Shown in pieces: positions 8,932-63,789 of a stretch of 64,000 nucleotides of DNA (the first letter of the stretch is position 1; every line of letters begins with the position of its first letter). A program made the translations under genes and the position numbers. Source of the DNA: Gammaproteobacteria bacterium (GTDB taxonomy: Bacteria > Pseudomonadota > Gammaproteobacteria > SZUA-140). The notes beneath the pieces are model-generated. The model was not told the DNA's origin. It saw nothing but the letters and a program-made list of their open reading frames with translations, and ran no database searches. Where the stretch lies: NCBI GenBank assembly GCA_046754065.1, contig JBHHVB010000002.1:33837-97836 (forward strand). The letters run 5' to 3'.

Positions 8932-9009
8932 CACGTAATCTGGAGACAGGTGTCAGGTTCGAGTGATTTTCTAACCGCGGGCTGTACACCTCGATAGAAG
9001 AGAGATGCT

Positions 9010-10200: not shown

Positions 10201-10201
10201 T

Positions 10202-42994: not shown

Positions 42995-44281
<1,287 letters not shown>

Positions 44282-44344
44282 ATCAGTACTCACATTTTCG
44301 CTGCAGAGCTAACGAAGAATAATCTAATATGGTATTGATAAAAT

Positions 44345-44992: not shown

Positions 44993-45029
44993 TGTGTAGC
45001 GTCATATTCAGATTTACAGGTTCGGATAA

Positions 45030-46349
45030 ATGATAAACATCCAAAAGCTAAGATCTTCAGATGCCGGTTTTTGGCCAGCCCTTAAAGGCTTGCTGGCTTG
45101 GGAGTCCGTATCAGACACTGATGTAAATGATACGGTTAAAAATATACTAAGCGATGTTCGAGAGCGTGGTGACCAGGCCGTTGTAGAATACACCAACAGA
45201 TTTGACCGGCTTTCCGCAAGTAATGTTAAAGACCTGGAGTTAAACAAAGAGAAGCTGGAAAAAGCCTGGGCGAGCATTGACGAAGCCATGCGTAATGCCC
45301 TGGAGTTTTCTGTTGGCCGGTTACGCGAATATCATCAGCATCAGAAAATGAAATCCTGGACGTATGAAGAAGCCGATGGGACGATTTTGGGGCAACAAAT
45401 AACCGCTCTTGATCGTGTGGGTTTATATGTTCCTGGCGGGAAGGCAATTTATCCATCCTCTGTATTAATGAATGCGGTGCCAGCCAGGGTAGCTGGTGTT
45501 TCTGAAATCATTATGGTTGTACCCACCCCGGATGGAGAGGTGAGTGATCTCGTTTTGGCAGCAGCCAGGATCTCGGGGGTGGATCGCGTATTTACCGTTG
45601 GGGGGGCTCAAGCGGTAGCGGCGTTGGCCTACGGAACGCAAACCATTCCCCGGGTCGATAAGATTGTTGGGCCAGGTAATATCTATGTCGCGACCGCCAA
45701 GGGAATGGTCTATGGAAATGTTGGAATAGACATGATTGCGGGGCCATCGGAAATACTGGTTATTTGTGACGGACACACACCTGCCGACTGGATTGCGATG
45801 GATTTGTTTTCTCAGGCAGAACATGATGAGGATGCTCAGCCTATACTGGTTTGCCCCGATGAAAACTATATAGACGAAGTTCATCGCAGCATTGAAAAGC
45901 TGCTTCCCCGGATGGAAAGAGCTAATATTATTCGGGCGTCATTGTTATCCCGGGCTGCGTTTGTACTGGTAAGAAATCTAGATGAGGCTGCAGAGGTGGC
46001 TAACTTTGTTGCACCGGAACATCTGGAGCTGTCAGTTGAAGAACCGATGGGATTGGCGAAAAAAATCAGGCATGCGGGCGCGATTTTTATGGGTAGGTAT
46101 ACTGCAGAAGCAGTCGGAGATTATTGTGCTGGACCTAACCATGTACTACCTACATCCCAAACTGCGCGATTCTCGTCCCCATTAGGCGTATATGATTTTC
46201 AAAAACGTTCAAGTCTGATTATGTGTAGTGCTGAAGGAGCGAGTGTCCTGGGCGAGGCTGCTTCCAGACTTGCTCGTGGCGAAGGTTTGACGGCGCATGC
46301 CAGATCAGCCGAATATCGAATTTCAACCGGAAAGGATGTCATCTCTTAA
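45030..46349 (+). CDS. hisD: histidinol dehydrogenase
   Basis: 439 aa; aligns with HisD along its length. Confidence 0.93.
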
Positions 46350-46381
46350 TTAATATCTTTTCACCCATCACACTTGTTAAG

Positions 46382-47473
46382 ATGAACGATAACGCAATAA
46401 CATCAATGATCGATGATTGGATTCGCCCGGAAATCAGAGATCTGTCCGCTTATCACGTACCAGATTCCTCGGGACTTATTAAGCTGGATGCCATGGAAAA
46501 TCCTTACACCTGGCCAACTCAATTAACTGATAACTGGTTAGCATCACTAAGAGATGCTCCTCTTAATCGTTATCCTGATCCAACTGCGAAGTCATTAAAA
46601 ATTGCACTGCGAGAAACTTTTTCAATTCCTGATGGTGTAGAGCTGATGCTTGGTAATGGCTCTGATGAGTTAATCCAGATGATTGCGATGGCAGTATCCG
46701 CTCCCAGCCGAACATTGTTGGCGACTTATCCGAGTTTTAGTATGTACCGAATTATTGCGACAATGGCTGGTCTGGATTATCGTGAAGTGCCTTTGAATGT
46801 CGATGAACTAGATATTCAGAGGGATTTGATGCTTGCGTCAATTGCTCAACATAAGCCAGCAATAGTCTTTCTGGATTATCCGAACAACCCCTCGGGTAAA
46901 CTATTTGATCAAGAGACGATTTGTGAAATTATCGAGACCGCACCCGGCCTTGTGGTCGTGGATGAGGCTTATTATTCATTTGCGAAAAGAAGTTTTATTC
47001 CACAAATAGCGCGTTACAGTAATTTGCTGGTGCTGAGAACATTGTCAAAAATGGGCCTGGCAGGCCTCAGGTTGGGCTTTTTGCTGGGTCGGCCTGACTG
47101 GATCGAGCAGATTAACAAAATACGCTTACCGTATAATATCAATATCCTTGCACAACTAAGTGCGACATTTGCACTCAAACATTATGATGTGTTTTGTCAA
47201 CAGACTGATAAAATTTGTCAGGATCGTGATAATTTATACCGGGAAATGTCTGTCCTGGGGGGGGTACAGGTTTACCACAGCGACGCTAATTTTCTGTTAT
47301 TTCGCGTTACCTCGCGCAGTGGAAATGAGGTTTTTGAGGCGATAAGACAACAAGGCGTACTAATCAAGAATTTACACAGCGATAACAGTGTTTTAAGCGA
47401 TTGTCTGCGGGTTACAGTGGGTCGTGCTGATGAAAACGCCAGCTTTCTGGCAGCATTGAAATCTGCCTTGTAG
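46382..47473 (+). CDS. hisC: histidinol-phosphate aminotransferase
   Basis: 363 aa class-II aminotransferase. PLP lysine in ...TLSKMGLAG.... Confidence 0.9.
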
Positions 47474-47516
47474 CGATGACGATGCAAAACATCCAAGCAG
47501 CGAACAGGAGTATAAA

Positions 47517-48110
47517 ATGGCTGAGCGTAGTGCCACAGTAAATCGGGGAACTAACGAGACCCAGATCACCGTTTCGGTCAATCTGGATGGTAGCGGAAAA
47601 TCAGTATTTGAAACGGGAGTGCCTTTTCTCGATCATATGCTGGATCAAGTCGCTCGGCATGGCTTGATTGATCTGGAGGTTAATGCAAAGGGTGATTTAC
47701 ATATCGATGCGCATCATACGGTTGAAGATATTGGTATCACAATGGGGCAGGCTATAAACCGGGCAATAGGCGATAAAAAGGGCATTAGACGCTATGGGCA
47801 TGCGTACGTGCCGCTGGATGAGTCTTTATCAAGAGTGGTAATTGATTTGTCCGGGCGTCCCGGGCTCGAATATCATGTCACCTATCCTCGGGCGCGGGTC
47901 GGGGATTTTGATCTCGACCTCATAGCAGAGTTTTTTAATGGATTTATCAACCACGCGATGGTTACATTACATGTCGAGAATATTCGTGGCAAGAACGCAC
48001 ATCATATTGCCGAGACCGTGTTTAAAGCGTTTGGACGGGCATTGAGGATTGCGGTTGAGCAGGATCCACGTATGCAAGGTGTTTTGCCATCCACCAAGGA
48101 ACATCTTTAA
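47517..48110 (+). CDS. hisB: imidazoleglycerol-phosphate dehydratase (monofunctional)
   Basis: 197 aa IGPD fold. Confidence 0.93.
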
Positions 48111-48141
48111 GTAGAAATTTAGCCAAGAGTATTATTACAAA

Positions 48142-48789
48142 ATGTCGACAGTAGCAGTCATTGACTATGGCATGGGCAATATCCGTTCGGTATCAAAGGC
48201 ACTGGAATATGTAGGTGGTGACACATCCGTTATCATTACTTATGACCCTGATCAAATTCTGAAAGCTGATCGAGTCGTATTTCCCGGTGTGGGCGCCTTG
48301 GGTGACTGCATGGAAGAGATAAAACGGCTGGGTCTGGATGAGGTGATAAAAGAATGCACCCGAACGAAACCTTTTTTTGGTATCTGTTTAGGGATGCAGG
48401 CATTGCTAGATAATAGTGAAGAAAATGACGGGACATCAGGTTTGGGAATTATCCCGGGTAAAGTCAAGCATTTTGATGTTCGGTTAGGTCGTAAAGAACT
48501 AAAAGAAAAGCTAAAGATCCCACATATGGGTTGGAACCGTGTTGATCAGACTTCGCCGCATGCACTATGGGAGGGGGTTCCGGATCTGAGCCGGTTTTAT
48601 TTTGTGCACAGTTATTATGTCGAGCCACGTCATTCACAAGTTGTCTCCGGTACTACAAAATATGGTTTTGCATTCACTTCCGCAATCGCGAGTGAAAATA
48701 TATTTGCTACGCAGTTTCATCCAGAAAAAAGTCAGCATGCGGGTTTGACGCTGTTTGCGAATTTTCTACGTTGGGATGGAACAGGTTGA
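48142..48789 (+). CDS. hisH: imidazole glycerol phosphate synthase glutaminase subunit HisH
   Basis: Class-I GATase with catalytic Cys in GICLGMQ. 215 aa. Confidence 0.9.
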   Translation: MSTVAVIDYGMGNIRSVSKALEYVGGDTSVIITYDPDQILKADRVVFPGVGALGDCMEEIKRLGLDEVIKECTRTKPFFGICLGMQALLDNSEENDGTSGLGIIPGKVKHFDVRLGRKELKEKLKIPHMGWNRVDQTSPHALWEGVPDLSRFYFVHSYYVEPRHSQVVSGTTKYGFAFTSAIASENIFATQFHPEKSQHAGLTLFANFLRWDGTG

Positions 48790-48850
48790 AGATAATTTAA
48801 AACCAAATAAATCGTTATGATAATCAGATTGAAAATGTGAGGTTTGTGAC

Positions 48851-49573
48851 ATGCTTTTAATTCCCGCTATAGATTTAAAGGACGGTAAATGTGTAAGGCT
48901 ACGACAGGGGAAAATGGATGATGAAACAATTTTTTCGGATGATCCATTGTCAGTGGCTCAACGCTGGGTTGATGTTGGGGCAAAGCGACTGCATTTGGTT
49001 GATTTGAATGGAGCATTTCAGGGCAAGCCGATCAATATTGAAGTAATCAATCGAATTGCATCAGCGTTTCCGGATTTAACTATTCAGGTAGGTGGTGGTA
49101 TTCGTGACGAAGATACCATCCAGTCCTATCTTGAGGCTGGTGTGGCGTATACCATCATCGGAACCAGCGCAGTCAATGAGCCGCATTTTGTTGGTGATGC
49201 CTGTCTTGAGTTTCCGGGTCATATCATTGTTGGGCTAGATGCGAAGGGTGGTAAGGTGGCCATCGACGGATGGTCCAAATTATCCAATCATGATGTAATA
49301 GATATTGCCCAGCATTTTGAGAAGGACGGCGTAGAGGCGATTATTTTTACGGATATAAGCCGTGACGGCATGATGCAAGGTGTGAATGTGGATTCTACGT
49401 TGGAGTTGGCAAAGTCAATTACGATTCCGGTGATCGCGTCGGGTGGAATTTCAAGCAAGGATGACATTAAAGCGCTTTCTGACGTGTCGGATGAAGGTAT
49501 CATGGGCGCGATAATTGGTCGAGCGTTGTATGAGGGCACGCTTGATTTTGAAGAGTGTCAGAAACTCGTTTAA
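48851..49573 (+). CDS. hisA: ProFAR isomerase HisA
   Basis: [17 protein letters not shown] start, (beta/alpha)8 fold, 240 aa. Confidence 0.9.
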
Positions 49574-50349
49574 TGTCCGGACTAGCAAAAAGAATTATTC
49601 CCTGTCTGGACGTGGACAATGGCCGCGTTGTCAAGGGTGTCCGTTTCGTGGAAATAACCGATGCGGGAGATCCCGTTGAGATTGCGAAATGCTATGATGA
49701 GCAAGGTGCTGACGAGCTGGTTTTTCTGGATATTACCGCTAGCCATGAAGAACGCGAAACCATGGTGCATGTTGTTGAGGAAGTAGCAAGCCAGGTTTTT
49801 ATCCCCTTAACTGTCGGTGGTGGAATTCGAGAAACCGCGGATATCAGGGTCATGTTAAATGCGGGTGCCGATAAGGTGGCGATCAATACCGCGGCGGTTA
49901 ACAACCCTGAATTAGTAAAAAAGGCCGCCCGGCGATTTGGCTCCCAGTGTATAGTTGTCGCGATAGACGCGAAGTGTGTGAGTAGTGACGACGAGAGCAG
50001 GCGCTGGGAAATTTTTACTCATGGGGGGCGAAATCGAACCGGTATTGACGCTGTCGAATGGGCGGAAAAAATGGCAAGCTACGGCGCTGGTGAGATATTG
50101 TTAACCAGCATGGACAAAGATGGCACCAAAGACGGTTATGATATTCCGCTGACCAGTGCGGTTTGCGACGCAGTATCGATACCAGTCATTGCCTCAGGCG
50201 GCGTTGGAACGCTGGATCATCTTGTCGAAGGCATTAATGCAGGTTATGCCGATGCGGTATTAGCCGCTAGTATATTCCATTTTGGAGAATATACGGTAGA
50301 GCAGGCCAAGCAACATATGGTAAATCATGGCATAGAGGTTAGACTATAG
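49573..50349 (+). CDS. hisF: imidazole glycerol phosphate synthase cyclase subunit HisF
   Basis: [11 protein letters not shown] motif. Start set at the ATG overlapping the hisA stop (TAATG). Confidence 0.9.
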
Positions 50350-50364
50350 ACGAGCGCAGGAAAT

Positions 50365-50781
50365 ATGGATGATCAGTGGCTTAATGAAGTTTGCTGGGAT
50401 GAGAACGGACTTGTGCCAGTTATCACACAAGACTACGAAACGGGCAAGGTGTTAATGCTGGCCTGGATGAACCGTGAGTCGTTGTTGGTAACCGGGTCCA
50501 CGAGGCGTGCCGTGTACTGGTCTCGTTCCCGTGCCCGATTATGGAAAAAGGGTGAAGCGTCCGGGCACGAGCAACTCGTCCATGAAATACGACTGGATTG
50601 TGATAATGATGCAGTATTGCTGGTAGTTGAACAGAAAGGCGGTATTGCTTGCCATACCGGCAGGTATAGTTGTTTTTACAAGCAGGAAAAAAATGGTTCC
50701 TGGAAATCTGTCGATCCGGTACTTAAGCAACCGAACGAGATTTACCAAAAAAAGATAAATGAAAAGAGCATGACATCGTGA
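50365..50781 (+). CDS. hisI: phosphoribosyl-AMP cyclohydrolase
   Basis: 138 aa HisI fold. Confidence 0.88.
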
Positions 50782-51110
50782 CGACCGATAGCGATCAAAT
50801 ATTACATCACCTGGCAAAAATTCTCGAAGAAAGAAAAAATGCCGATCCATCAAGTTCTTATACTGCGAGTCTGTATGATCGAGGGCTGGATGATATTCTT
50901 CAGAAGGTAGGGGAAGAGGCAACTGAAATGATTATTGCAGCCAAAAACGGCGCAAAATCGGAGCTTGTTTACGAAACTGCCGATCTCTGGTTTCATTCCC
51001 TGGTGGCGCTTGCCTATATGGAGCTGGGTCCTGGAGATATCCTGGCGGAATTGAATAAAAGATTTGGCGTCTCAGGTCTCATAGAAAAGGCAGCGCGTCG
51101 CAATAAATAA
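50778..51110 (+). CDS. hisE: phosphoribosyl-ATP pyrophosphatase
   Basis: 110 aa, MazG-like fold. GTG start overlapping the hisI stop. Confidence 0.85.
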
Positions 51111-51234
51111 CAGATAGTTATTGCTGTATCATCAAGATGCCAGTGAAAAATGCACGCTAACTGTAAGTCTGGTATACTGGAGCGTTCCTTTGTAAAAGTT
51201 TATTGATGAGCGTAAAGGCTCAGGAGGTTAGGAA

Positions 51235-51471
51235 ATGGGTTTTAGTCCCTGGCAATTATTAATCGTTTTGTTAATCATATTATTGTTATTTGGTACAAAA
51301 AAACTGCGTAATGTGGGTTCGGACCTTGGTGGTGCCGTAAAAGGCTTTAGAAACGCGATGGGTGACGAAGACAAAACAAACGGTCAAAAAGATGTTGAAC
51401 AGGCAGAAGCGGAAAACCGGGTTATTGAGGGGGAGGTCTCTGCAGAGGAAAAAGACAAGGAAAAAGTATAG
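51235..51471 (+). CDS. tatA: twin-arginine translocase subunit TatA
   Basis: [24 protein letters not shown] start. RBS aggagg. Confidence 0.9.
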
Positions 51472-51563
51472 GTTGTTATTAGCCGGCTGAGATTATGTCG
51501 CTAGTTATCGCAACGGTTAGATTCAACTCAAGAAAATTTCTTCAATAATCTAGTCTATCCATT

Positions 51564-51911
51564 ATGTTTGATATCGGTTTCTGGGAGATTACGGTCATTG
51601 CGGTAGTGGCGTTGATCGTAGTCGGGCCGGATGAGTTTCCCTATCTTGTCAGAAAGATAGGCGGCTGGATAGGCAATGCACGTCAAATCGTCAATAACGT
51701 GAAAGCCGATCTGGATCGGGAGGTCAACCGGGCAGACGAATTGAAGAGTCGGATAGAAGAAGAAACCAGAATTGCTGAATTACATCAGCAGGTGGAGAGC
51801 CAGGGCCGAAAAATAACGGCATCGGTGAATAAGTCCGTAACCGATGACTCTTTTCCAGAAGAACGTATCAAGGCTGATTCCCGTGTCGAGTCGACAGAGA
51901 GGGTTGAGTAG
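51564..51911 (+). CDS. tatB: twin-arginine translocase subunit TatB
   Basis: MFDIGFWEITVIAVVALIVVGPDEFP start. Confidence 0.85.
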   Translation: MFDIGFWEITVIAVVALIVVGPDEFPYLVRKIGGWIGNARQIVNNVKADLDREVNRADELKSRIEEETRIAELHQQVESQGRKITASVNKSVTDDSFPEERIKADSRVESTERVE

Positions 51912-51913
51912 CA

Positions 51914-52684
51914 TTGGCCAAGCCTGAAAAATATCCGCCAGATCAGAAACAACCCTTGATTTCGCACCTGATTGAGCTACGAAACCGGCTAATCAGGATT
52001 GTGATCGCAGTGGGAGTATTTTTCCTGGTGCTTTTTCCATTCGCTAACGAACTGTATAGCACCATATCCCAACCTCTATTGCAGCATTTGCCGGCCGGGA
52101 GTTCTATGATTGCAACGGAGGTAGCCTCCCCGTTTATCGCACCGTTCAAATTTACCATAGTGCTGGCCTTTTTTATTGCAATACCTTTCGTCCTGTATCA
52201 GGTTTGGTATTTCGTGGCGCCGGGCCTGTATAGCGCGGAGAAAAAACTTCTGTTGCCCCTTTTGTTTTCAAGTACTGCGTTATTCTATCTGGGTATGGTG
52301 TTCGCATATTATGTGGTATTCCCGTTGATATTCGGTTTTTTTGTCGCTGTCGCCCCTGAAGGGGTTACTGTTATGACCGACATCAGTCGATATCTGGATT
52401 TTGTGCTAAAGTTGTTCTTTGCTTTTGGTATTGCTTTTGAGGTACCCATCGCAACCATTTTACTGGTATGGATGGGTTTAACGACACCTGAAAAACTGGT
52501 TGCCAAGCGGGCTTACGTTATCGTTGCAGCCTTTGTGATTGGAATGGTTTTAACGCCGCCTGACGTTATCTCGCAAACCTTGTTGGCATTACCCATGTGG
52601 TTTCTGTTTGAGGTGGGTGTCTTTTTCTCAAAAATGATCCAGAAACATGGTCCTGATTCAGAAAGGCAGGACGAGGTTTCATGA
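51914..52684 (+). CDS. tatC: twin-arginine translocase subunit TatC
   Basis: 256 aa with 6 TM segments. HLIELRNRL N-terminal motif. TTG start. Confidence 0.88.
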   Translation: MAKPEKYPPDQKQPLISHLIELRNRLIRIVIAVGVFFLVLFPFANELYSTISQPLLQHLPAGSSMIATEVASPFIAPFKFTIVLAFFIAIPFVLYQVWYFVAPGLYSAEKKLLLPLLFSSTALFYLGMVFAYYVVFPLIFGFFVAVAPEGVTVMTDISRYLDFVLKLFFAFGIAFEVPIATILLVWMGLTTPEKLVAKRAYVIVAAFVIGMVLTPPDVISQTLLALPMWFLFEVGVFFSKMIQKHGPDSERQDEVS

Positions 52685-54048: not shown

Positions 54049-54807
54049 ATGACCCGGTTAGATGATATGGTGAAATACTGTGATGAGTTGTTGCGGGTTG
54101 ACGAATTTCAGGATTACGCGCCAAACGGATTGCAAATCGAGGGGAAGCCGGATGTCTCACGAATTGTGAGTGGCGTTTCGGCAAATCTGGCATTGATTGA
54201 GTCTGCAATCCAGCATCGTGCAGATGCAGTGATAGTGCACCATGGCTATTTTTGGCGCGGCGAAGATCCTCGCATAATAGCAATGAAAAAACGAAGAATA
54301 GAATTGCTGATGGTACACGGTATCAGTCTGTTGGCTTACCATTTGCCACTGGACGCCCATCCCGAAATCGGAAATAACGCGAGTATTGCTGAAGTATTAG
54401 GCGTTTCAACTTCGGGCAATTTTGGCAGTGGCCTACAGTCAGGGCTAGCTATGTATGGGGAACTGGACGTCGCAACCAAACCCGAAAAATTGTCTGCGTT
54501 GTTGCAGGATAAACTGTCGCAAGCTCCGCTCCATCTTCCGGGGAGAGCGTCCGAGATCAAGAGTATAGGGTGGTGTACAGGCGCTGCGCAGGATTATCTG
54601 TTTGACGCGGCGCAATTAGGACTGGATGCATACATCTCGGGCGAGGTGTCTGAACAAACCACCCATATCGCACGAGAAATGGGGATACATTATTTTGCTG
54701 CAGGGCATCATGCTACCGAGCAATTTGGTGTCAGGAGGTTGGCGGACCGTCTATCGACACACTTTAAAATAGACCATATCCCAGTCAATATTCCTAATCC
54801 TGTGTAG
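54049..54807 (+). CDS. Nif3-family dinuclear metal centre protein (YbgI/YqfO-like)
   Basis: 252 aa. Shows Nif3/YbgI conservation, including HHGYFW and the C-terminal histidine cluster. Confidence 0.85.
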   Translation: MTRLDDMVKYCDELLRVDEFQDYAPNGLQIEGKPDVSRIVSGVSANLALIESAIQHRADAVIVHHGYFWRGEDPRIIAMKKRRIELLMVHGISLLAYHLPLDAHPEIGNNASIAEVLGVSTSGNFGSGLQSGLAMYGELDVATKPEKLSALLQDKLSQAPLHLPGRASEIKSIGWCTGAAQDYLFDAAQLGLDAYISGEVSEQTTHIAREMGIHYFAAGHHATEQFGVRRLADRLSTHFKIDHIPVNIPNPV

Positions 54808-54969
54808 ATTGATCAGGTTTTAAAACGGTTTTTTTAATCTGGATTACTCGTGCTTCCGGATAGTTGACTGACGGATAAACATTTTCCGATATTGCATCAA
54901 ATATTGAATATCTGATTCAGGTAAAATGTTGAAAGACATCTATCCACCACATTCCGGGGTCATTAATCA

Positions 54970-54998
54970 TTGACATGTTCGTGAAACTTTTCTAGCAT
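54970..54998 (+). promoter_or_regulatory. candidate sigma-70 promoter upstream of the ACIII operon
   Basis: TTGACA-N17-TAGCAT about 280 nt upstream of actA. The surrounding region is AT-rich and contains the small dyad tgaat-N5-attca. Confidence 0.25.
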
Positions 54999-55274
54999 TC
55001 AGAGTTCATCGGTAGAGAGAGAAAAATAGAATAATAATAGGCTTATAATGTTTAAGGGTTTGCATAATCAGGTTAGATCGCTCAGCCAAGTTCATCCATC
55101 TTTACGAATTATTGAATTTTAGACCTGCGCATTTTTATGGGGGATTAATGGCCGCTCGTTGCGTGGGCGAGGTTTTTGGGCATAACTTATTCGAGGGTTG
55201 ATATGTCAGTAACTCAGTTTTTTTTGTCAGGTTCGACTGTTTCCAATGATTCGGGAATTAGGCTAAGGAATAAA

Positions 55275-55856
55275 ATGCGTCGCAGAGATCTAGCGTTAGC
55301 TTGCCTGCTACTAATTACATTTTTAATATCACTTTCAGGTATTGTGTTTGCAGAAGGGGCAGTACCGAACGCAGTTCCCCCAAAAGGAACTCACAATGGT
55401 AAGGACGTAAAACAGCCTATCGAGTTTCCTCATAATATCCATGCCGATGTCAATAAAATAAATTGCATGTACTGTCATACCTACGCTCGCCGTAGCAAGG
55501 TAGCGGGTATCCCGCCAACCAGTAAATGCATGGGTTGTCATAGCATCATTGCAACGGATAAACCCCGTATTAAAAAGCTGACGGAGTATTGGGAGAACAA
55601 ACAACCGCCTGTCTGGAAAAAGGTCCATGATGTCCCGGATTTTGTTCATTTTACCCATGAAAAACACTTGAAACGATTCGTGTTTGATAACGAGGGCATG
55701 GCCGTTGAAAACGTATCGGAGGTTTGTGCTTTCTGTCATGGCGAGGTAAAGAAAATGACGGTTGCAAAGAAGGTAAAACCACTCAATATGGGTTTCTGTA
55801 AGAGATGCCACGAGGATAATGGTGGTCCCTTTGACTGTTGGAAATGCCATAAATAA
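55275..55856 (+). CDS. actA: Alternative Complex III pentahaem cytochrome c subunit ActA
   Basis: Five CxxCH motifs (CMYCH, CMGCH, CAFCH, CKRCH, CWKCH) and an N-terminal TM anchor. RBS aagga before ATG 55275; alternative starts at 55202 and 55176. Confidence 0.75.
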   Translation: MRRRDLALACLLLITFLISLSGIVFAEGAVPNAVPPKGTHNGKDVKQPIEFPHNIHADVNKINCMYCHTYARRSKVAGIPPTSKCMGCHSIIATDKPRIKKLTEYWENKQPPVWKKVHDVPDFVHFTHEKHLKRFVFDNEGMAVENVSEVCAFCHGEVKKMTVAKKVKPLNMGFCKRCHEDNGGPFDCWKCHK

Positions 55857-55925
55857 AGGTTGGTAAAGATCCAGATTTGTTGATCACACAGACACTATCA
55901 AGTGACCAAAACGGGGTAGTTCACT

Positions 55926-58127
55926 ATGAGTTTTAATAATATGAAGCGCAGGGAATTTTTAAAAGTTATGGGTTGGAGTGGTGTAGGCGCCACTGCACTG
56001 GCTGGTTGCGATGTGCCAACCACCGTTACCTTAAAAGAAGGCGACGAAGATGTTGTCTCTTATTTGATGCCAGAGGAATATGTTATTCCCGGTGTGGGTG
56101 TTACCTATGCCTCTACCTGCCAGCAATGTAGCGCTGGATGTGGTTTGCATGGTCGGGTACGTGAAGGCCGGGTACTGAAGCTTGAGGGGAATCCCGAGTC
56201 GTCAACTAACCTCGGTCGAATCTGTCAGATGGGCCAGGCAGGATTGCAGGCGCATTACAATCCCGATCGTATTAAAAAACCCCGTCTGCGTAAGGGTGAT
56301 TCACTTCAGGAAGTAAGCTGGGACGAAGCGCTAAGCGCACTTGAAGAAAAGACCGGCGTTAAGGCAGGCCGTGCTGCGTGGTTAACCGGATCAGTGAGCG
56401 GGCATCAGCGTACATTGATTGAAGCACATCTCGCGTCAATGAATTCAGATAGTCATTTTGTTCATGAAACTATCCACAACGCGGTTTGGAGAGCAGTGAG
56501 TAAAGATATGTTGGGCGATGCGAATCCACGCATAAGGATTGACAAGGCGAAGATGGTGCTCTCATTTGGTGCAGATTTCCTCGGTACCTGGGAGTCACCG
56601 GTGCACTTTGCTACTCAATATTCAACATTTCGTGATGCACCCCGAGGTGTACTGGTTCAAATTGAGCCAAAAATGACGTTAACCGGTGGTAATGCCGACC
56701 TGTGGGTTGCTAATCCTCCCGGCAGCGAAGGTGTACTGGCGTTAGGGGTTGCGAATGTGCTGGTTAATAAACTAGGGCATGATGTTTCAAATCTTCCATC
56801 TTCGATAAAAGATCTTATTTCAGGGTATTCGATAGATGCCGTCAAGGCAAAAACCGGTGTACCAGGTGAAACACTCATACGAATTGCTGAATTGTTGCAC
56901 GAAAGAGCACCCAGCCTTGTTTTGGCAGGTGCTTCTGCAGAGGGTCATGAGCATGGGTATGACTCTGTCGCTGCAATCATGTTGCTAAATATTATTTTAG
57001 GCAATGTTGGAAAAACCATCGAGTCCGCATCATTCCCTCATATGGATCTGGCTGCAAAATCAGGTAGCACAAAAGGTATCACTGATCTGGCGCAGGCAGC
57101 CGAAGCCCAGAAATTGGATGTATTGTTTATTGCCGGGTCCAACCCTGTTTATTCTGCACCGGGATTTGTTGGCATCAAGGAAAAACTCGCGGCTGTTCCT
57201 TTCAAGGTGGTTTTGACCCAGTTTGAAGATGAAACATCGCAAATTGCGGACCTCGTATTGCCGCTTGCGTCTGCGATCGAAGACTGGGGAACACATGTGC
57301 CGTCCGATCATGCAGGTAAGGCCGCACTGGTTAGCATCCAGCAGCCAATGATGGAACCCTTATACCCTGATACCAGGAGCTTGGGAGACATCTTGCTGTC
57401 TTTATTGAAGATGAGAGATGCCGATACCTATGGTGAGTTTGATGATTATTATGCATTCTTGCGTAAAGCTTTTTCTTCCTTGCCCGCATCAGTCAAAAAC
57501 GGGGCTGGTGATGATGAATTCTGGGCAAACGCGTTACAAAAAGGCGGGCTGACATTTGGATTACGCACTGGATCACTGACGTCGAATGCCGTTGAAGTGA
57601 ACCTGCCAGACAACACGGATGACCAGCAGTATCCGTATCATCTTGTGCCTTCAGCGCGACTGGGACTGTGGGATGGCCGCCATGCAAATATACCCTGGCT
57701 TCAGGAAGCGCCTGATCAGATTAGTAAGGTCTTCTGGGATTCATGGATTGAACTTCACCCTGAAACAGCTTCGAAATTGAAGGTTAAAGAAGGTGATGTG
57801 GTAAAAGTCAGTTCCGAACAGGGCTCAATACAGGCAATGGTCTATATCTATAAGGGGGTTCATCCCGATGCTATCGGCGTGCCGCTTGGACAGGGACATG
57901 AAGCATACGGACGTTATGCGAAGGGCCGTGGTATCAACCCGATGAAAATCCTCAATCCCGTTGCTGACAAAAGCACTGGCGAAGTCGCATTATTCGGTAC
58001 CCGTGTTCAAATAGCGAAAGCAGGTAAGCGCGGTACACTGTTGAGATTTGGTGGTAGCGAAGTGCAGGTTGGTCGTAAACTTGTTGCCACGATACCTGCA
58101 GAAAAGTTCAACCGTTTAGAAGGTTAA
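55926..58127 (+). CDS. actB1: ACIII subunit ActB, molybdopterin-oxidoreductase-like domain (B1), Tat-exported
   Basis: Tat signal RREFLKVMGWSGVGATALAGC. MopB-like fold without a full Mo-cofactor signature. 733 aa. Confidence 0.8.
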   Translation: MSFNNMKRREFLKVMGWSGVGATALAGCDVPTTVTLKEGDEDVVSYLMPEEYVIPGVGVTYASTCQQCSAGCGLHGRVREGRVLKLEGNPESSTNLGRICQMGQAGLQAHYNPDRIKKPRLRKGDSLQEVSWDEALSALEEKTGVKAGRAAWLTGSVSGHQRTLIEAHLASMNSDSHFVHETIHNAVWRAVSKDMLGDANPRIRIDKAKMVLSFGADFLGTWESPVHFATQYSTFRDAPRGVLVQIEPKMTLTGGNADLWVANPPGSEGVLALGVANVLVNKLGHDVSNLPSSIKDLISGYSIDAVKAKTGVPGETLIRIAELLHERAPSLVLAGASAEGHEHGYDSVAAIMLLNIILGNVGKTIESASFPHMDLAAKSGSTKGITDLAQAAEAQKLDVLFIAGSNPVYSAPGFVGIKEKLAAVPFKVVLTQFEDETSQIADLVLPLASAIEDWGTHVPSDHAGKAALVSIQQPMMEPLYPDTRSLGDILLSLLKMRDADTYGEFDDYYAFLRKAFSSLPASVKNGAGDDEFWANALQKGGLTFGLRTGSLTSNAVEVNLPDNTDDQQYPYHLVPSARLGLWDGRHANIPWLQEAPDQISKVFWDSWIELHPETASKLKVKEGDVVKVSSEQGSIQAMVYIYKGVHPDAIGVPLGQGHEAYGRYAKGRGINPMKILNPVADKSTGEVALFGTRVQIAKAGKRGTLLRFGGSEVQVGRKLVATIPAEKFNRLEG

Positions 58128-58138
58128 GGAGTCGGTAA

Positions 58139-59014
58139 ATGTCACTGAAAAATATCCTTGAAAACTGGTCCGGCTACCGTAAAGGTCGTGAACAAGGCGG
58201 TCATCACGAATACGAACATATGTGGGGGATGGTCGTAGATCTAAATAAATGTATCGGCTGTAATGCATGCGCCGTCGCCTGTTATGCAGAAAATAATCTT
58301 GCAGTGGTAGGTCCGGAAAAACTGGAAAAAGGTCAAGGGATGCACTGGTTGCGCCTGGAAAGATATTGGGATGAGCCAAACCTCGGAGAAGAGCGAGTAA
58401 GCACGACCCAGCAGCATGGCGCAAGCTTTATACCGATGATGTGCCAGCAATGTAACGCAGCGACATGCGAACCTGTCTGTCCGGTTGCCGCAACCTATCA
58501 TACGCCTGATGGATTGAACGCCCAGGTATATAATCGCTGTATTGGTTCCCGTTATTGTTCAAATAACTGTCCATACCGCCTGCGTTATTTTAACTTCTGG
58601 TCTTACTATGAAGGTGCAGAGAATGCATGGCCTTCTCCATTACATATGCAACTTAATCCCGATCTGTCGGTGCGTGATAAGGGTGTTATGGAAAAATGCA
58701 CTTTTTGTGTGCAAAGAATCAGGGCAGGCAAGGATAAGGCGAAAATGGAAAACAGGCCCGTCGCTGACGGTGATATCACACCAGCATGTGTCCAAACATG
58801 CCCAACCAGCGCTTTGGTTTTTGGTGATATTCTTAGCCTGCATAAAGCAGGTGCGCCAGAAAGCAAAGCAAGCAAGTTGTGGCGCAAACATCAAGTTGAG
58901 TTGGGTAGAACCGAACAGAAGAAACAGAATAAAGATCTTAGAGGTTATAGAGTGCTGGAATTTCTGAACACAGATCCTTGTGTGCTCTATCTGGAACGTG
59001 TACGTGAAGTTTAA
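58139..59014 (+). CDS. actB2: ACIII subunit ActB, 4Fe-4S ferredoxin domain (B2)
   Basis: Multiple Cys clusters (CIGCNACAVAC, CQQCNAATCEPVCP, CIGSRYCSNNCP, CTFCVQR) typical of PsrB/DmsB-like subunits. Confidence 0.8.
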   Translation: MSLKNILENWSGYRKGREQGGHHEYEHMWGMVVDLNKCIGCNACAVACYAENNLAVVGPEKLEKGQGMHWLRLERYWDEPNLGEERVSTTQQHGASFIPMMCQQCNAATCEPVCPVAATYHTPDGLNAQVYNRCIGSRYCSNNCPYRLRYFNFWSYYEGAENAWPSPLHMQLNPDLSVRDKGVMEKCTFCVQRIRAGKDKAKMENRPVADGDITPACVQTCPTSALVFGDILSLHKAGAPESKASKLWRKHQVELGRTEQKKQNKDLRGYRVLEFLNTDPCVLYLERVREV

Positions 59015-59054
59015 ACCATATAACTGCGTCAATAACGATAAATCGGTGTGAAGC

Positions 59055-60464
59055 ATGAAAGATATTAACGAAGATATAAAATGGGCAAAAATTAACGAAG
59101 ACGTTCTGCGATCCATGGAGAACCCGCGAAAGTGGTACTGGGTCTCGGTTGCCGGGTGTCTTGCACTACTATCATTAGCGGTTATTGGTGAGGTTTACCA
59201 ATATAACATAGGGATGGGGCCATCCAATCTAAACTGGCCACACATGTGGGACCTGTATATCGCGAGCTTCATTTTCTGGATTGGTATGAGCCATTCCGGA
59301 ACGCTGTTGTCGGCAATCTTGCATATCATTCAGTCAGACTGGCGTAAACCAATCTACCGATTTGCTGAGGCAATGACGACTTTCTCATTGTTAACAGCGG
59401 GTCTCTTCCCGGTTATCCATGCCGGTCGTTTGTGGAACATCTACTGGACATTGCCTTATTACACCGATCGAGGTATCTGGCCGAATTTTCGTTCCCCATT
59501 AATCTGGGATGCATTTGCGGTATTTACCTATCTGACATCATCTGCACTTTTCCTGTTCATTGGTATGATTCCAGATCTGGCAATCTGCCGTGACAATGCC
59601 AAGGGGTGGAGGAAGAAACTTTATACTGTGCTCTCATTAGGATGGCGCGGTGATGACAGGCAGTGGCGTCACTTCCGTAAAACCTATTTATTGATGGCAT
59701 GTTTTCTGATCCCTCTTGCGGTATCAGTACACTCAATCGTATCGTCTGACTTTGCGATGTCGATTATGCCTGGGTGGCATGTCACGTCATTCCCTCCTTA
59801 CTTTGTTGCAGGCGCCCTTTATTCAGGTTGTGCGGCGATTATCACGCTGTTTATCATGTTGCGTTACTTCTTCCGTTTTGAGGAATATATGACGCTCGCG
59901 ATTCTAGAGAAAACCTGTAAACTGACCTTTGCCATCGCGATGGTCTGGACTTATCTGAATCTGATTGAATTTGCTTCTGTCTGGTATGGTCATGACCTGG
60001 CTTCAAAAGAAGTGCTTATAGATAAAGCCACAGGGCCTTATTCCGGGATATTCTGGACGATGATATTCTGTGGGTCGGTTGTTCCATTTGCGTTGGCATT
60101 CACAAGCCTTAGGCGACATATTCCAACGATGTTGATTGTGTCCTTATTGTTAAACCTTGGGATGTTTTTCGAGCGCTGGATGATTGTTGCCCCGACACTT
60201 GCTGCATCCTATCACCCGTTTGCATTCGATACGATGTGGGGAAGCTGGGTTGAGTGGTTTATTGTTGCCGGTAGTTTTGGGTGGTTTGGCTTGTTATTCC
60301 TGGTATTTGTAAAAGTCTTTCCATCGGTATCGATGTATGAAGTTAAAGAAATGGTCTTCCATCGTAGGCATCTGGCGAATAAAGATATTTCGGCTGTGAT
60401 GCATAGAAGATCGACAGACCCGAAACCAGATGATGAGTCTGGGCTGGAAGGAGCAGGATCATGA
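59055..60464 (+). CDS. actC: ACIII membrane subunit ActC (NrfD/PsrC family)
   Basis: 469 aa polytopic NrfD-like protein. Confidence 0.8.
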   Translation: MKDINEDIKWAKINEDVLRSMENPRKWYWVSVAGCLALLSLAVIGEVYQYNIGMGPSNLNWPHMWDLYIASFIFWIGMSHSGTLLSAILHIIQSDWRKPIYRFAEAMTTFSLLTAGLFPVIHAGRLWNIYWTLPYYTDRGIWPNFRSPLIWDAFAVFTYLTSSALFLFIGMIPDLAICRDNAKGWRKKLYTVLSLGWRGDDRQWRHFRKTYLLMACFLIPLAVSVHSIVSSDFAMSIMPGWHVTSFPPYFVAGALYSGCAAIITLFIMLRYFFRFEEYMTLAILEKTCKLTFAIAMVWTYLNLIEFASVWYGHDLASKEVLIDKATGPYSGIFWTMIFCGSVVPFALAFTSLRRHIPTMLIVSLLLNLGMFFERWMIVAPTLAASYHPFAFDTMWGSWVEWFIVAGSFGWFGLLFLVFVKVFPSVSMYEVKEMVFHRRHLANKDISAVMHRRSTDPKPDDESGLEGAGS

Positions 60465-60985
60465 AAAAATGTCGAATCTTAGGTTTGTTTAGTAATTTTG
60501 ATGAAGCATTTGGTGCCATCTCTGATATCAGGCACTACAAAATCCAGGGCGTCTCAGTGGATGATGTCAATGTGATATCACCGATCGAGCACCCGGAAAT
60601 TGAGGAAGTTCTGGGAGATCGACCTGCTCATGTACCGAAATTCACAATCTGTGGGGCAATTTTCGGCATTTGTTTTGGCTTTCTTTTCCTGGCCTCTGCT
60701 CAGGCGAATTTTCTTGTCCAGCCGCAGGGTGGCAAGCCAGTGATTCCATTGCCATCTAATTTTGTACTGACCTATGAAATGTTGATCCTGTTCGGTGTGT
60801 TGATGACGCTGACCGGGTTTTTGATTGGGGCACGTCTGCTGAGAAAACGAAAAAGTTTGTATAGTGAAAAAGTGGGTGTCGATCAGGTAGGTATTGAACT
60901 AGAGGTAGAGGAGAAATACCTGGAACCTATTAAAGATTTATTTAAACAGCACGAGGTGCTGGAAGTACGAGACGAGGTATTATAA
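60461..60985 (+). CDS. actD: ACIII subunit ActD
   Basis: 174 aa with two TM segments. Conserved position and DUF3341-like sequence. Confidence 0.7.
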   Translation: MKKCRILGLFSNFDEAFGAISDIRHYKIQGVSVDDVNVISPIEHPEIEEVLGDRPAHVPKFTICGAIFGICFGFLFLASAQANFLVQPQGGKPVIPLPSNFVLTYEMLILFGVLMTLTGFLIGARLLRKRKSLYSEKVGVDQVGIELEVEEKYLEPIKDLFKQHEVLEVRDEVL

Positions 60986-61536
60986 TGAGAGCCAGACTGA
61001 TCGTAGCAGCATTATTGTTTCCTACCGTGGCCTTTGCATGGCCATGGTCTACAGATATGATGGATCAGCCTAATATTAAGCCGCAAGAAGGCGTGATGAA
61101 GGCTTTCCCAGCTCGCTCAATCCCCGTTTCAGGAATTCCGACGAAAGTTGCTAATCGTGACGAAGCGAAACCATTGAAGAGCCCCATTCCGGTGAGTGAA
61201 GCGTCCTTGAATAAAGGTAAAACCTTGTTCAGGATCTATTGTTCAGCATGCCATGGTTTAACCGGGGCTGCAGATTCACCTGTAACGAACAAGATTGGCG
61301 CAATTAGCCTGATTGATAGCTACGTACAGGAAACCCTCACAGAGGGATGGATTTATGGCACGATTACCTTCGGTAGCTATGTGATGCCCGCTTATGGATC
61401 TCCAGCATCGCGAGATGATAAGCGTGGATCGAATGATTTATCGATAGAGGAACGCTGGCATGTGGTTAATTATGTGAAACATGGTCTTGCAAAGGATGCC
61501 GAATCAAGTACCACCCGTACAGCGGCGAATAACTAG
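60985..61536 (+). CDS. actE: ACIII monohaem cytochrome c subunit ActE
   Basis: Signal peptide plus a single CSACHG haem motif. Confidence 0.72.
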   Translation: MRARLIVAALLFPTVAFAWPWSTDMMDQPNIKPQEGVMKAFPARSIPVSGIPTKVANRDEAKPLKSPIPVSEASLNKGKTLFRIYCSACHGLTGAADSPVTNKIGAISLIDSYVQETLTEGWIYGTITFGSYVMPAYGSPASRDDKRGSNDLSIEERWHVVNYVKHGLAKDAESSTTRTAANN

Positions 61537-61594
61537 AAAACAATGAAGAGAGTTTGGCCCTTAATGAGCCTATCAAACAGAAGCGAGGAATCCG

Positions 61595-62641
61595 ATGGAA
61601 GTTGAATTCGGCAGTTGGTCAGTTTTAACCACCAATTTCTTGGTGTTAATGTATATCGCTCTTGGGGGAGTTACGCTAGCATCTGTTCTACATCTTTGTA
61701 ACGGACAATGGCGCTTCCAGGTTCGGTATCTTTCCTGTTCTTTTTATGTGCTTTATCCGATTGCAGGAATCGTATTATTGATTTTGCTTGCCAATGGCGA
61801 TGCGACGTTTCAGTGGCTCGGGCATGGTCATGGGCACGATGAAGAGCATCATCTGAATGGATGGCATAATTATTCGTTTCTGGTGTTGCGACAAATCTTT
61901 GCTTACGTTGTGGTAGGCGTTTTGTTCTCAATGTTTATTAAATACCAGCATTTAACCGATATTGATAAGTCAGAAGCGGTCCGCTGGCGTTTCAGAAATA
62001 TTGCTTTGTTAGTCCCGTTTGCCTATTTCCTGTATGGGACATTATTGGCATGGGATTTCGAAATGACAATGGTGCCTGGCTGGCACAGTGCGAGCTACGG
62101 CGCGTATCAATTCCAGAGTGGATTCCATATGTTTCTCGCATTTTTCACGCTGTTTCTGTTTTTTACCAACCGTTCGGGCAAGTTAACAAAGCCATTTGAG
62201 AGTTATATCTTCAACTTTATGGCCCAGTTTATGCTGGCGATGACTATCTTGTGGACATACCTATATTTCACTCAATACCTGATTATGTGGTACGGCCGTC
62301 TGCCAACGGATATGGCTCGTTATGACAGTATGATGCTCGAAGGGTTTGGTTTGTTATGGTGGACCTTCCTGGCATTGAAATTCATCATTCCGTTTACAAC
62401 GCTTGCTATTACCCCAAATCGCCATAATCCGGTGATTATTACCATGGTAGCGGGAAGTATTTTACTCGGGTCATGGATTGAGCGTTATACATGGATCGCA
62501 GGCTCTGGAGACAGCGAACATTACATTATGCCGCTAAGTACCTTGTTCGGTATAACTGTCACGATTGTGTTAATAGCGGTGAGCTGGATTGCGGTGAAAA
62601 AGACGCTTATAAAATATGGTCTGCTTCAAACGGAATCCTAA
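61595..62641 (+). CDS. actF: ACIII membrane subunit ActF (NrfD-like, ActC paralog)
   Basis: 348 aa polytopic and similar to ActC. Confidence 0.72.
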   Translation: MEVEFGSWSVLTTNFLVLMYIALGGVTLASVLHLCNGQWRFQVRYLSCSFYVLYPIAGIVLLILLANGDATFQWLGHGHGHDEEHHLNGWHNYSFLVLRQIFAYVVVGVLFSMFIKYQHLTDIDKSEAVRWRFRNIALLVPFAYFLYGTLLAWDFEMTMVPGWHSASYGAYQFQSGFHMFLAFFTLFLFFTNRSGKLTKPFESYIFNFMAQFMLAMTILWTYLYFTQYLIMWYGRLPTDMARYDSMMLEGFGLLWWTFLALKFIIPFTTLAITPNRHNPVIITMVAGSILLGSWIERYTWIAGSGDSEHYIMPLSTLFGITVTIVLIAVSWIAVKKTLIKYGLLQTES

Positions 62642-62711
62642 TATGTTGATAGGGCATTAAATTTGCTCTAACTATAAAAAGAGGAGGGGAACTCCCGTTT
62701 ATATCAAATAG

Positions 62712-62737
62712 AGAGGCCGAAAGGCCTCTTTTTTTTG
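62712..62737. terminator. rho-independent terminator between convergent actF and the DUF3530-like gene
   Basis: agaggcc-gaaa-ggcctct hairpin followed by a T8 run. Confidence 0.7.
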
Positions 62738-62751
62738 CCTAGGCTCCCGGG

Positions 62752-63789
62752 TTATCTCGTAGTGTTGATCGCAATACCTCCGGCATGTTTTTTTAGCCAG
62801 CCAATGACTCGTTTACTGAGAATATTTTCAAACCCCTTGAAACTGTGATCTGCGCCGGTTATCTCAAATCTTCGGTATGCGATGTAGCCAGCTTTTTGTT
62901 CAACACCGGTTTTAGCGGTTGCTGACTGGCTGAAAGCCTCGATATTCTGGCTCTGGGTTGCAACCTGACCGGCTCTTTTTGCGCTAATTCCTCGATCATC
63001 CGCGTATTTTCTGACGTTGGATAAATCCCTGCTTCCAAAGGTGTCCAGGACGGGTAACGCAATTTGTTCGAGTGAGTGGATGGCATTAAACTGTTGGTCT
63101 TTATCCTTGTATGTGAGCATGCTAATTGCGACAAAGGATGTAATTCCACTATCGGGATTAGCTGCCAAAAATGAAGCCGCGACGGTTGCACCCAGCGCAT
63201 CACCAATTAACGTAATATTTGCTATTCCCTGATGCTGATAAAATTTAATGGCAGATTGAATGCGGGTCGAAAATTCTTTTAATAAGGGCAGGTATTCCTC
63301 AACACTGGCTGATTTAGCCAATGTTGGCAGCTGAATAGACAGGGTAGACCATCCATATTCAGGTAATTTTCTCCTTAATGGAGCGATGACATATGGCCAG
63401 TTCGGGTGGGTTCCCAGGGGATGTAGCAATATTGCGCCACCTTGCAGCTTGTCCTTGCGGTTTTGCAGATATAACGCAAAGGTTTTTATACCATCTTGTT
63501 CCAGCCATTCTACTTCGCCCGGGTCTACTGTCTTTAATATTTCTACCTGCCATTGAATTTCAAGCTCGGTATTGCGTGACGGGCCCAATGGTACATTGCC
63601 ATTTGGTGCAGACGAACCAGCTGGCTGAGTACTAGTAGTTTGTTCCTGATCTGGCTCTGTTTCATCCAGAGAATAAGCAACATCAGGCTTAAAAATTGCT
63701 GTTAAAGCGAAAATTAAGGCCAAAATTTGTAATTTTTTCAAATCAATTGTCGTCGCGCGATTTGCCTTGATGGTCTGGGTTCGGTCCAT
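62752..63789 (-). CDS. secreted alpha/beta-hydrolase-fold protein (DUF3530-like), function unknown
   Basis: Signal-like N-terminus and a low-complexity Gln/Thr/Ser linker. The core contains an elbow-like LIGDALGAT motif. 345 aa. Confidence 0.5.
   Translation of the reverse strand: MDRTQTIKANRATTIDLKKLQILALIFALTAIFKPDVAYSLDETEPDQEQTTSTQPAGSSAPNGNVPLGPSRNTELEIQWQVEILKTVDPGEVEWLEQDGIKTFALYLQNRKDKLQGGAILLHPLGTHPNWPYVIAPLRRKLPEYGWSTLSIQLPTLAKSASVEEYLPLLKEFSTRIQSAIKFYQHQGIANITLIGDALGATVAASFLAANPDSGITSFVAISMLTYKDKDQQFNAIHSLEQIALPVLDTFGSRDLSNVRKYADDRGISAKRAGQVATQSQNIEAFSQSATAKTGVEQKAGYIAYRRFEITGADHSFKGFENILSKRVIGWLKKHAGGIAINTTR

Follow-up and report, generated by a model that had tools for sequence, protein, structure and literature searches.

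A complete Alternative Complex III operon with a split ActB in the chromosomal slot of the cytochrome bc1 genes in a deep gammaproteobacterial lineage

We describe an operon coding for Alternative Complex III (ACIII) in a 64-kb stretch of contig JBHHVB010000002.1 from an uncultured gammaproteobacterium (hereinafter the window, i.e., the whole stretch analyzed). Listing and translation of open reading frames (ORFs), combined with family searches, recover seven co-directional ORFs on the forward strand between 55203 and 62641, actA, actB1, actB2, actC, actD, actE and actF (Table 1). We searched each product against all sequences of the Protein Data Bank (PDB), where ACIII is represented by the solved complexes 6F0K, 6BTM, 6LOD and 8K9E, and for every one of them the top match is the cognate subunit of a solved ACIII, with that of ActD not reaching significance (E = 0.028). 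The intergenic gaps range from −4 to 69 bp, with overlaps at actC/actD and actD/actE, and one terminator, a strong hairpin with its T-run at 62710-62731, closes the series; hence, we treat these genes as a single operon. The counts of haem and iron–sulfur (Fe–S) motifs match the cofactors that PMC8076601 lists for ACIII. Judged from its sequence, the region is a bona fide, complete ACIII operon and a new example of an already described ACIII architectural type. This bears out an initial annotation of the stretch as to the completeness and contiguity of the operon, the haem counts of ActA and ActE, the identities of the individual subunits, the terminator after actF and a convergent DUF3530-like gene beyond it. 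However, the gaps of 0–60 bp it gave have to be corrected to the values above and, of its operon span of 55176–62641, the right end stands while the left end does not.

Table 1. Coordinates of the act genes and associated features in the window
Feature	Position	Strand	Description	Basis
NIF3/YbgI-family gene	54049..54807	+	left flank marking the petABC slot; not a subunit	Pfam, NCBIfam
candidate sigma-70 promoter	54970..54998	+	TTGACA-N17-TAGCAT	10/12 consensus matches; consensus match only
leader hairpin	55153..55169	+	terminator-like hairpin and T-run within the leader of actA, 34 nt ahead of its likely start	
actA	55203..55856	+	pentahaem cytochrome c with N-terminal membrane helix, 217 aa	five CxxCH, PDB ActA matches
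actB1	55926..58127	+	Tat-exported molybdopterin-oxidoreductase-like protein with FS0 Cys motif and lipobox, 733 aa	Pfam, PDB ActB matches
actB2	58139..59014	+	four-cluster iron–sulfur subunit without a signal peptide of its own, 291 aa	PDB ActB C-terminal matches
actC	59055..60464	+	NrfD-like quinol-binding membrane subunit, 469 aa	6f0k_C, E = 4.5e-100
actD	60461..60985	+	small membrane subunit, 174 aa; 4-nt overlap with actC	Pfam PF11821 ActD
actE	60985..61536	+	monohaem cytochrome c with signal peptide, 183 aa; 1-nt overlap with actD	6btm_E, E = 4e-10
actF	61595..62641	+	second NrfD-like membrane subunit, 348 aa	PDB ActF matches
intrinsic terminator	62710..62739	+	3′ of actF; 9-bp stem with 5 G-C pairs, GAAA loop, T-run	
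DUF3530 gene	62752..63789	−	convergent neighbor; not a subunit	Pfam PF12048, E = 4.5e-35

The individual subunits display the features expected of their ACIII counterparts. ActA is a membrane-anchored pentahaem cytochrome, with CxxCH motifs at residues 88, 109, 175, 199 and 212, a single predicted hydrophobic helix at the N-terminus, and the ActA chains of 8k9e, 6f0k, 6lod and 6btm as its top PDB matches (E = 6e-27 to 2e-21). The Tat-exported B1 and four-cluster B2 modules of ACIII, which may be fused or separate, are separate genes here, and both find their best PDB matches among the ActB chains of 6lod, 6f0k, 8k9e and 6btm. ActB2 aligns best with the B2 domain at the C-terminal end of ActB (residues 793-996 in 6f0k, E = 8e-68) and has 15 cysteines arranged as CxxCxxCxxxC, CxxCx4Cx3CP, Cx5Cx3CP, CxxC and Cx3CP, a pattern that fits one [3Fe-4S] and three [4Fe-4S] clusters. 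In ActC, all nine of the quinol-pocket residues named for the Rhodothermus marinus protein by Sousa et al. (PMC5928083) are conserved in the alignment to 6f0k_C (W65, I69, F72, P119, H122, L149, D152, V229 and D232), in keeping with an NrfD-like subunit bearing a P-side quinol site. The ACIII-specific subunit ActD is recognized by the Pfam model (89.9 bits against a cut-off of 25.7), on which its identity is based because its PDB match is not significant. ActE has one CxxCH and a cleavable signal peptide, but no lipobox cysteine. Finally, ActF finds no Pfam match, its top PDB matches being the ActF chains of 6f0k (E = 7e-16) and 6btm (E = 5e-14); it is weakly similar to ActC, as befits the second NrfD-like subunit, and is shorter than the solved ActF proteins. 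Its alignment to R. marinus ActF (417 aa) begins at residue 73 of the latter, and it probably does without the extra N-terminal helix of the solved versions.

The most conspicuous architectural feature is the encoding of ActB as two genes. As solved ActB proteins are fused, one might suspect a sequencing or assembly frameshift in a fused actB at the actB1/actB2 boundary; this is the sole point in its favor, and we regard it as having a vanishingly small chance of being correct. The two genes lie in different frames, separated by an 11-nt spacer that holds an AAGGAG 7 nt before the actB2 ATG. Further, all 120 ActB1 homologs among the matches listed are 719–771 aa long as opposed to ~1000 aa, and the ActB1 of an NCBI metagenome-assembled genome (MFQ5468839.1) is 733 aa and falls in the same 90% cluster as the window protein. 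The locus is found on two Logan assemblies of different runs, SRR29324594 and SRR29324588, the second being a 6.3-kb contig that ends inside actB1. The same separation of B1 and B2 is seen at each of the five close genome loci and at 80 metagenome loci, and it extends to distant homologs from Acidobacteriota and Dehalococcoidia, such that the split recurs in more than 200 homologs and loci. The split is thus natural and not an artefact, with the conserved arrangement, the Shine–Dalgarno sequence and the independent assemblies ruling out a frameshift. The initial annotation was correct in noting the split ActB and the lack of both an actG and an adjacent oxidase; however, its implication that these are unusual is overstated, all three being documented ACIII variants. 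Separate ActB1 and ActB2 proteins are an accepted variant, and many organisms have their act operon apart from oxidase genes, at least according to the relevant statements in PMC9386147 citing Refojo 2010 (for the former, also in PMC4643136), while actG is the only act gene that is not present in all clusters (Sousa et al., PMC5928083).

More unexpected is the cofactor motif of ActB1. This protein bears a twin-arginine motif (KRREFLK) followed by the Pfam domains PF04879 (Molybdop_Fe4S4), PF00384 (Molybdopterin) and PF01568 (Molydop_binding), all above cut-off, with the first covering nearly the full model (positions 3-55 of 55). Within it, a CX2CX3CX27C motif for a [4Fe-4S] cluster (C65, C68, C72 and C100; hereinafter FS0) is invariant across 65 of 65 clade sequences, even though no other subunit evolves as fast as ActB1; indeed, the RR of the Tat signal, C28-D29 and these four cysteines are the sole residues at their positions, gaps aside. 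The motif was already noted in the ActB1 of iron oxidizers by Kato et al. (PMC4643136). In contrast, the B1 domain of the solved complexes is devoid of a prosthetic group (PMC5928083), and both QrcB and ActB have been described as cofactor-less (PMC6303296). The FS0 cysteines are absent from the solved ActB proteins as well as from the B1 proteins that Acidobacteriota and Dehalococcoidia encode separately; therefore, the split and FS0 are independent traits. We consider it very probable that ActB1 binds this one extra [4Fe-4S] cluster. A B1 without prosthetic groups characterizes the ACIII complexes solved so far and does not define the family. The additional cluster would lengthen the Fe–S wire leading into B1.

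An invariant FS0 motif together with three molybdopterin-oxidoreductase domains that score above cut-off also raises the prospect that ActB1 is a still-active enzyme with molybdenum or tungsten bound to bis-pyranopterin guanosine dinucleotide (Mo/W-bisPGD), which would make the complex a substrate:quinone or substrate:cytochrome oxidoreductase belonging to the CISM (complex iron–sulfur molybdoenzyme) family rather than a complex III. The arsenate reductase subunit ArrA lends this some credence, as it is the fourth-best PDB match of ActB1 and the best one for the FS0 region alone. However, over the full length the best matches are the ActB chains of 6lod, 6f0k and 8k9e. Moreover, the residue aligned to the Mo-ligand cysteine of ArrA is His184 in the window protein and Asn in 58 of 65 clade sequences, with the position varying between H, N, S and G; the Cys, Sec, Ser or Asp ligand of Mo/W that marks the catalytic CISM molybdoenzymes (Psr, Phs, Arr, Fdh) is thus not a conserved feature of ActB1. 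As it has no molybdenum-ligand residue, ActB1 is not expected to be a catalytic molybdoenzyme, and a catalytic Mo site in it appears unlikely. The named CISM models in NCBIfam all score far under their cut-offs, the ACIII-specific partners ActD, ActE and ActF are present, and ActB1 is the least conserved and fastest-evolving of the subunits (54–64% identity versus 73–82% for ActC). We accordingly reject an active molybdoenzyme as quite improbable, chiefly on the NCBIfam scores and the unconserved Mo-ligand position, and return to ActB1 as the B1 module of an ACIII.

DmsAB-type enzymes offer a model for an Fe–S subunit that is exported as the Tat passenger of its partner. By analogy, ActB1 would most likely pilot the cluster-loaded ActB2 across the membrane as a passenger, because it carries the only Tat signal while ActB2 is without a signal peptide. 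ActB1 additionally possesses a lipobox, LAGC-D with Asp at the +2 position, which is invariant among the 65 clade sequences and suggests lipid tethering to the inner membrane.

The genomic setting of the operon points to its relationship with the cytochrome bc1 complex encoded by petABC. A metagenome scan with an ActB1 alignment yielded 80 related loci (54–64% identity), the flanking genes of which were mapped by tblastn. Two comparably related metagenomic organisms (loci L086 and L088/L089) display the gene order mla-bolA-murA-hisGDC-degS(-)-NIF3-petA-petB-petC-sspA-sspB. Their HisD and DegS proteins are 70–72% and 60–65% identical, respectively, to those of the window and, in HisD, HisG and DegS, the closeness of these petABC-type loci to the window equals that of the act-type loci. 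The act operon sits in this petABC slot, between the NIF3 and sspAB genes of relatives. Three configurations of the act-bearing loci can be distinguished. In the first (type I, 11 loci), act is followed by pet genes after an actF–petA gap of 251–890 bp, with seven loci continuing as petABC-sspA-sspB (L133, L134, L143, L144, L156, L157 and L159) and four having a right end that is cut or different (partial in L151, L154, L165 and L172). In the second (type II, 13 loci), the order is hisF-tatC-degS(-)-NIF3-act-sspA-sspB with no petABC, and the actF–sspA gap of 127–563 bp leaves no room for pet genes; two genome loci (L004 and L005) have a related act-sspAB form. The third (type III), comprising the window and about 15 other loci, reads NIF3-act-(DUF3530)-rpe-gph-trpE. 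Overall, NIF3 is the left-hand neighbor of act at 39 of the 57 metagenome loci that are informative on this side, whereas on the right, 36 informative loci divide into petABC (11), sspAB (12), DUF3530/rpe (11) and other genes (2); one further NIF3-act-sspAB locus was left out of this tally because its sequence stops too soon after actF.

On an unrooted neighbor-joining tree of ActB1, ActB2 and ActC, loci of like configuration fall together, with type I in two separate groups. We envisage that act was inserted beside petABC in the ancestor of the clade, that petABC then disappeared from the slot on at least two occasions, and that the right flank was rearranged further in the sub-clade of the window. 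In the literature searched, we found no description of an ACIII in the petABC slot. Arrival of the operon as a recent horizontal island can be ruled out: its GC content equals that of the window (0.46 in both), as does its GC at third codon positions, and the divergence of the act subunits across the related loci runs parallel to that of the flanking housekeeping genes, which together indicate long residence. Among the related loci we also came across an extra minus-strand gene resembling actB2 immediately behind petABC in L151 and L154 (at ~21-22 kb) and an extra actC-like ORF after actF in L109, which may represent further NrfD/Fe–S modules in the neighborhood. In a 599-kb long-read contig (L085:17929-19116), actF seems disrupted, with a 157-aa call and tblastn coverage of residues 4-207 only, probably due to an assembly indel or because it is a pseudogene.

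By homology with the solved complexes, quinol would be oxidized at the periplasmic-side pocket of ActC, with the electrons passing via the proximal [3Fe-4S] cluster of ActB2 and the five ActA haems to the single haem of ActE. A soluble carrier in the periplasm would then take them up and deliver them to an oxidase, or some other reductase, whose genes lie elsewhere. Putative proton paths would run through ActC and ActF, and ActD would serve as a membrane scaffold. Taking the operon and its setting together, we hold it highly likely that this is a complete, functional quinol:cytochrome c (or high-potential iron–sulfur protein, HiPIP) oxidoreductase of the ACIII type that was inserted beside petABC, with petABC subsequently lost from the slot. 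As petABC has been lost from the slot in the lineage of the window, ACIII is probably the main complex III of this organism and possibly the only one. The evidence from the locus inclines us to the view that ACIII replaces rather than supplements bc1 here.

The converse proposal is that this ACIII runs mainly in reverse, as a cytochrome c:quinone reductase that is a partner of bc1 and not its substitute, drawing electrons from a periplasmic donor of high potential (Fe(II), an electrode or reduced sulfur) and pushing them uphill to the quinone pool. Such reverse flow is what others have suggested for clusters of this actAB1B2CDEF type in iron oxidizers and electroautotrophs, and the split, FS0-bearing ActB1 is the form found in the iron oxidizers of the Gallionellales and Zetaproteobacteria (PMC4643136). 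For Tenderiales, the joint possession of ACIII and bc1 has been proposed to serve forward and reverse flow (10.1101/2022.05.06.490989); moreover, the placement of act directly upstream of an intact petABC in the 11 type I loci suggests that the two are non-redundant there. Models of the Qrc menaquinone reductase are also the best named NCBIfam models for ActA, ActB1 and ActB2, though all score under cut-off. On the other hand, act is kept where petABC is gone from the slot, both in the lineage of the window and in at least 13 NIF3-act-sspAB loci, which is more easily explained by the forward reaction. The window is also free of Cyc2, Mto, any other extracellular-electron-transfer gene and any further cytochrome c, and every ACIII characterized so far is a quinol oxidase (PMC5928083, PMC8076601). 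Hence, we deem the reverse-running partner unlikely and favor a forward-running quinol oxidase that probably took the place of bc1.

Several considerations nonetheless weigh against this preferred interpretation. Tenderiales, which are related gammaproteobacteria, and Gallionellaceae often hold both ACIII and bc1 (10.1101/2022.05.06.490989; PMC10734462), as do the type I relatives, side by side, and the bc1 status of the present organism can be read for only ~66 kb of its genome. The function of ACIII in this clade is read from sequence alone, from which the direction of electron flow is unreadable. Given an unrooted tree, the order of insertion followed by loss is a matter of parsimony and not proof. 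The occupancy of FS0 is deduced from four cysteines and a Pfam domain match, and the hitchhiker export and ActB1 lipidation from motifs; in R. marinus, the equivalent cysteine is removed with the signal peptide (PMC5928083).

A more far-reaching view, which we find possible if somewhat doubtful, is that the clade has been caught midway in replacing bc1 by ACIII at one locus, with ACIII as the sole complex III in the lineage of the window and FS0 perhaps extending the Fe–S wire. The purpose of the “dead-end” Fe–S wire of ACIII has been called elusive (PMC5928083); if the above is true, the wire could reach, via FS0, a second redox port on ActB1, as a branch that was lost in the solved complexes. 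The roughly 100 related loci form a locus-level series, from bc1 only through ACIII beside bc1 to ACIII in place of bc1, and this displacement series is direct genomic evidence for one respiratory complex replacing a non-homologous one that catalyzes the same reaction. It also singles out naturally occurring genomes where one can examine if ACIII and bc1 duplicate each other or share out forward and reverse flow, while a strictly conserved fifth Fe–S site without a Mo ligand offers a handle on the unexplained B1 module and its Fe–S wire. We regard the series of loci at the petABC slot, like the invariant FS0 motif, as a testable lead rather than an established novelty.

The region upstream of the operon required some revision of the initial annotation. 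Its left end, 55176, simply coincides with the TTG that comes first in the open frame. The ATG at 55203 is preceded by a GAGGG Shine–Dalgarno sequence; the eight metagenomic relatives nearest to the window retain both this and the initial five codons (MSVTQ) at the nucleotide level, making this ATG the most likely start of actA. As a consequence, the leader is 395 nt long instead of the 467 bp given initially; it is AT-rich as stated (37% GC versus 46% for the window). The Shine–Dalgarno sequence, start codon and first five codons together form a ~25-nt block, GAG(A/G)GGG..ATGTCAGT(A/T)ACTCAG (window 55185-55220), which is kept in L096, L097, L099, L104, L111, L112, L122 and L161 while the adjacent leader and later codons are not, and may act as a translational control element. 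We found no clade-wide conservation of leader sequence beyond what these nearest relatives share. The sole short leader stretch similar to the leaders of relatives is 55191-55231. Both the promoter and the small dyad that had been singled out lie outside it: the TTGACA-N17-TAGCAT hexamers are present in letter, yet promoter-like sites in the leader region are no more frequent than chance (4 seen versus 3.4 expected from shuffles), and TGAAT-N5-ATTCA is present at 54905-54919 but, with its 5-bp arms, is trivial, being no more than any short dyad expected.

A known RNA element in this long leader is ruled out by Rfam, which detects only two tRNAs in the whole 64-kb window. The hairpin in the leader is not conserved in relatives; it might serve as an attenuator or have arisen by chance. 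An FNR/Anr box can likewise be discounted for the window, where the only candidate is a two-mismatch site at 54929 (~0.2 expected by chance). A perfect FNR/Anr box, TTGATAAGCATCAA, occurs in the act leader of a single related metagenome-assembled genome (L001:9131-9144; ~0.001 expected by chance), and oxygen-responsive control of act may thus operate in some members of the clade. The NIF3–actA spacer is long in 44 related loci (524–1350 bp between tblastn matches), being conserved in length and not in sequence; in petABC-type loci, the NIF3–petA spacer measures ~200–240 bp.

The remainder of the window has a housekeeping character, with genes such as prs, pth, ychF, prkA-DUF444-spoVR, amtB, miaB, phoH, ybeY, lnt, leuS, lptE, holA, rng and yhdP, an ABC-transporter ATPase, an MlaC-like gene, murA, the his genes, tatC, degS and NIF3. 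The immediate left flank of the operon is degS(-)-NIF3. To its right, the DUF3530 gene is conserved downstream of act in the sub-clade of the window only, and the next 4 kb past the window hold rpe, gph and trpEGD. Neither the window nor these 4 kb contain an oxidase, a pet gene or a further c-type cytochrome. A crude motif scan for haem-copper and bd oxidase signatures found none within 10 kb of act in 94 clade loci; thus, the absence of an adjacent oxidase is a clade-wide trait. The host itself is placed in a deep and uncultured lineage of Gammaproteobacteria: its LeuRS reaches 72% identity with the best non-self match, and the nearest named genus, Methylophaga, stands at ~70%. Further afield, murA-hisGDCBHAF(IE)-tatABC is contiguous at window 43022-52684, likewise in act-carrying relatives, while in the petABC-type relatives L086 and L088 hisGDC leads directly to degS, such that the his/tat layout co-varies with the type of complex III locus. 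Also upstream are the prkA-DUF444(yeaH)-spoVR(ycgB) stress/starvation operon (window 7000-11629) and a 360-aa ORF on the minus strand (window 11643-12725) with no Pfam family at E ≤ 1e-5.

Among known systems, cytochrome bc1 is the functional counterpart of the complex described here. The two share the quinol:cytochrome c oxidoreductase reaction and, in related genomes, the same NIF3–sspAB slot; however, they are structurally unrelated, ACIII having no Rieske protein, cytochrome b or cytochrome c1. The QrcABCD menaquinone reductase of sulfate reducers resembles it in composition, with separate subunits for a multihaem cytochrome, a cofactor-less molybdopterin-like protein, a four-cluster Fe–S protein and an NrfD-like protein. 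Nevertheless, a Qrc identity is rejected: the NCBIfam equivalog cut-offs are unmet (77 versus 180 for ActA, 293 versus 440 for ActB1 and 199 versus 400 for ActB2), ActA has five haems as compared to the hexahaem QrcA, and ActD, ActE and ActF are not part of Qrc. The lineages of ActC and QrcD are also distinct (PMC6303296).

Against the solved ACIII complexes of R. marinus (6F0K), Flavobacterium johnsoniae (6BTM), Roseiflexus castenholzii (6LOD) and Chloroflexus aurantiacus (8K9E), the present version shows the same ActA–F set, the same 5 + 1 haems c, the same cysteine pattern for one [3Fe-4S] and three [4Fe-4S] clusters, the Tat signal on ActB, and an ActC that is ~50% identical (339 bits) and agrees in its quinol pocket residue for residue. 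It differs in having ActB as two genes in place of a fused one, a complete FS0 motif in ActB1 where the solved B1 has neither motif nor cofactor (PMC5928083), an ActF ~70–115 residues shorter through the missing N-terminal region, no ActG or ActH, an ActE without a lipobox, and no adjacent oxidase genes. The closest parallel is with the ACIII-like clusters of the iron oxidizers Ferriphaselus, Gallionella, Sideroxydans and Mariprofundus (Kato et al. 2015, PMC4643136), with which, going by their published description, it shares the actAB1B2CDEF order, the split actB and the CX2CX3CX27C motif in ActB1, whereas its host is a deep uncultured gammaproteobacterial lineage and the window offers no iron-oxidation gene context.

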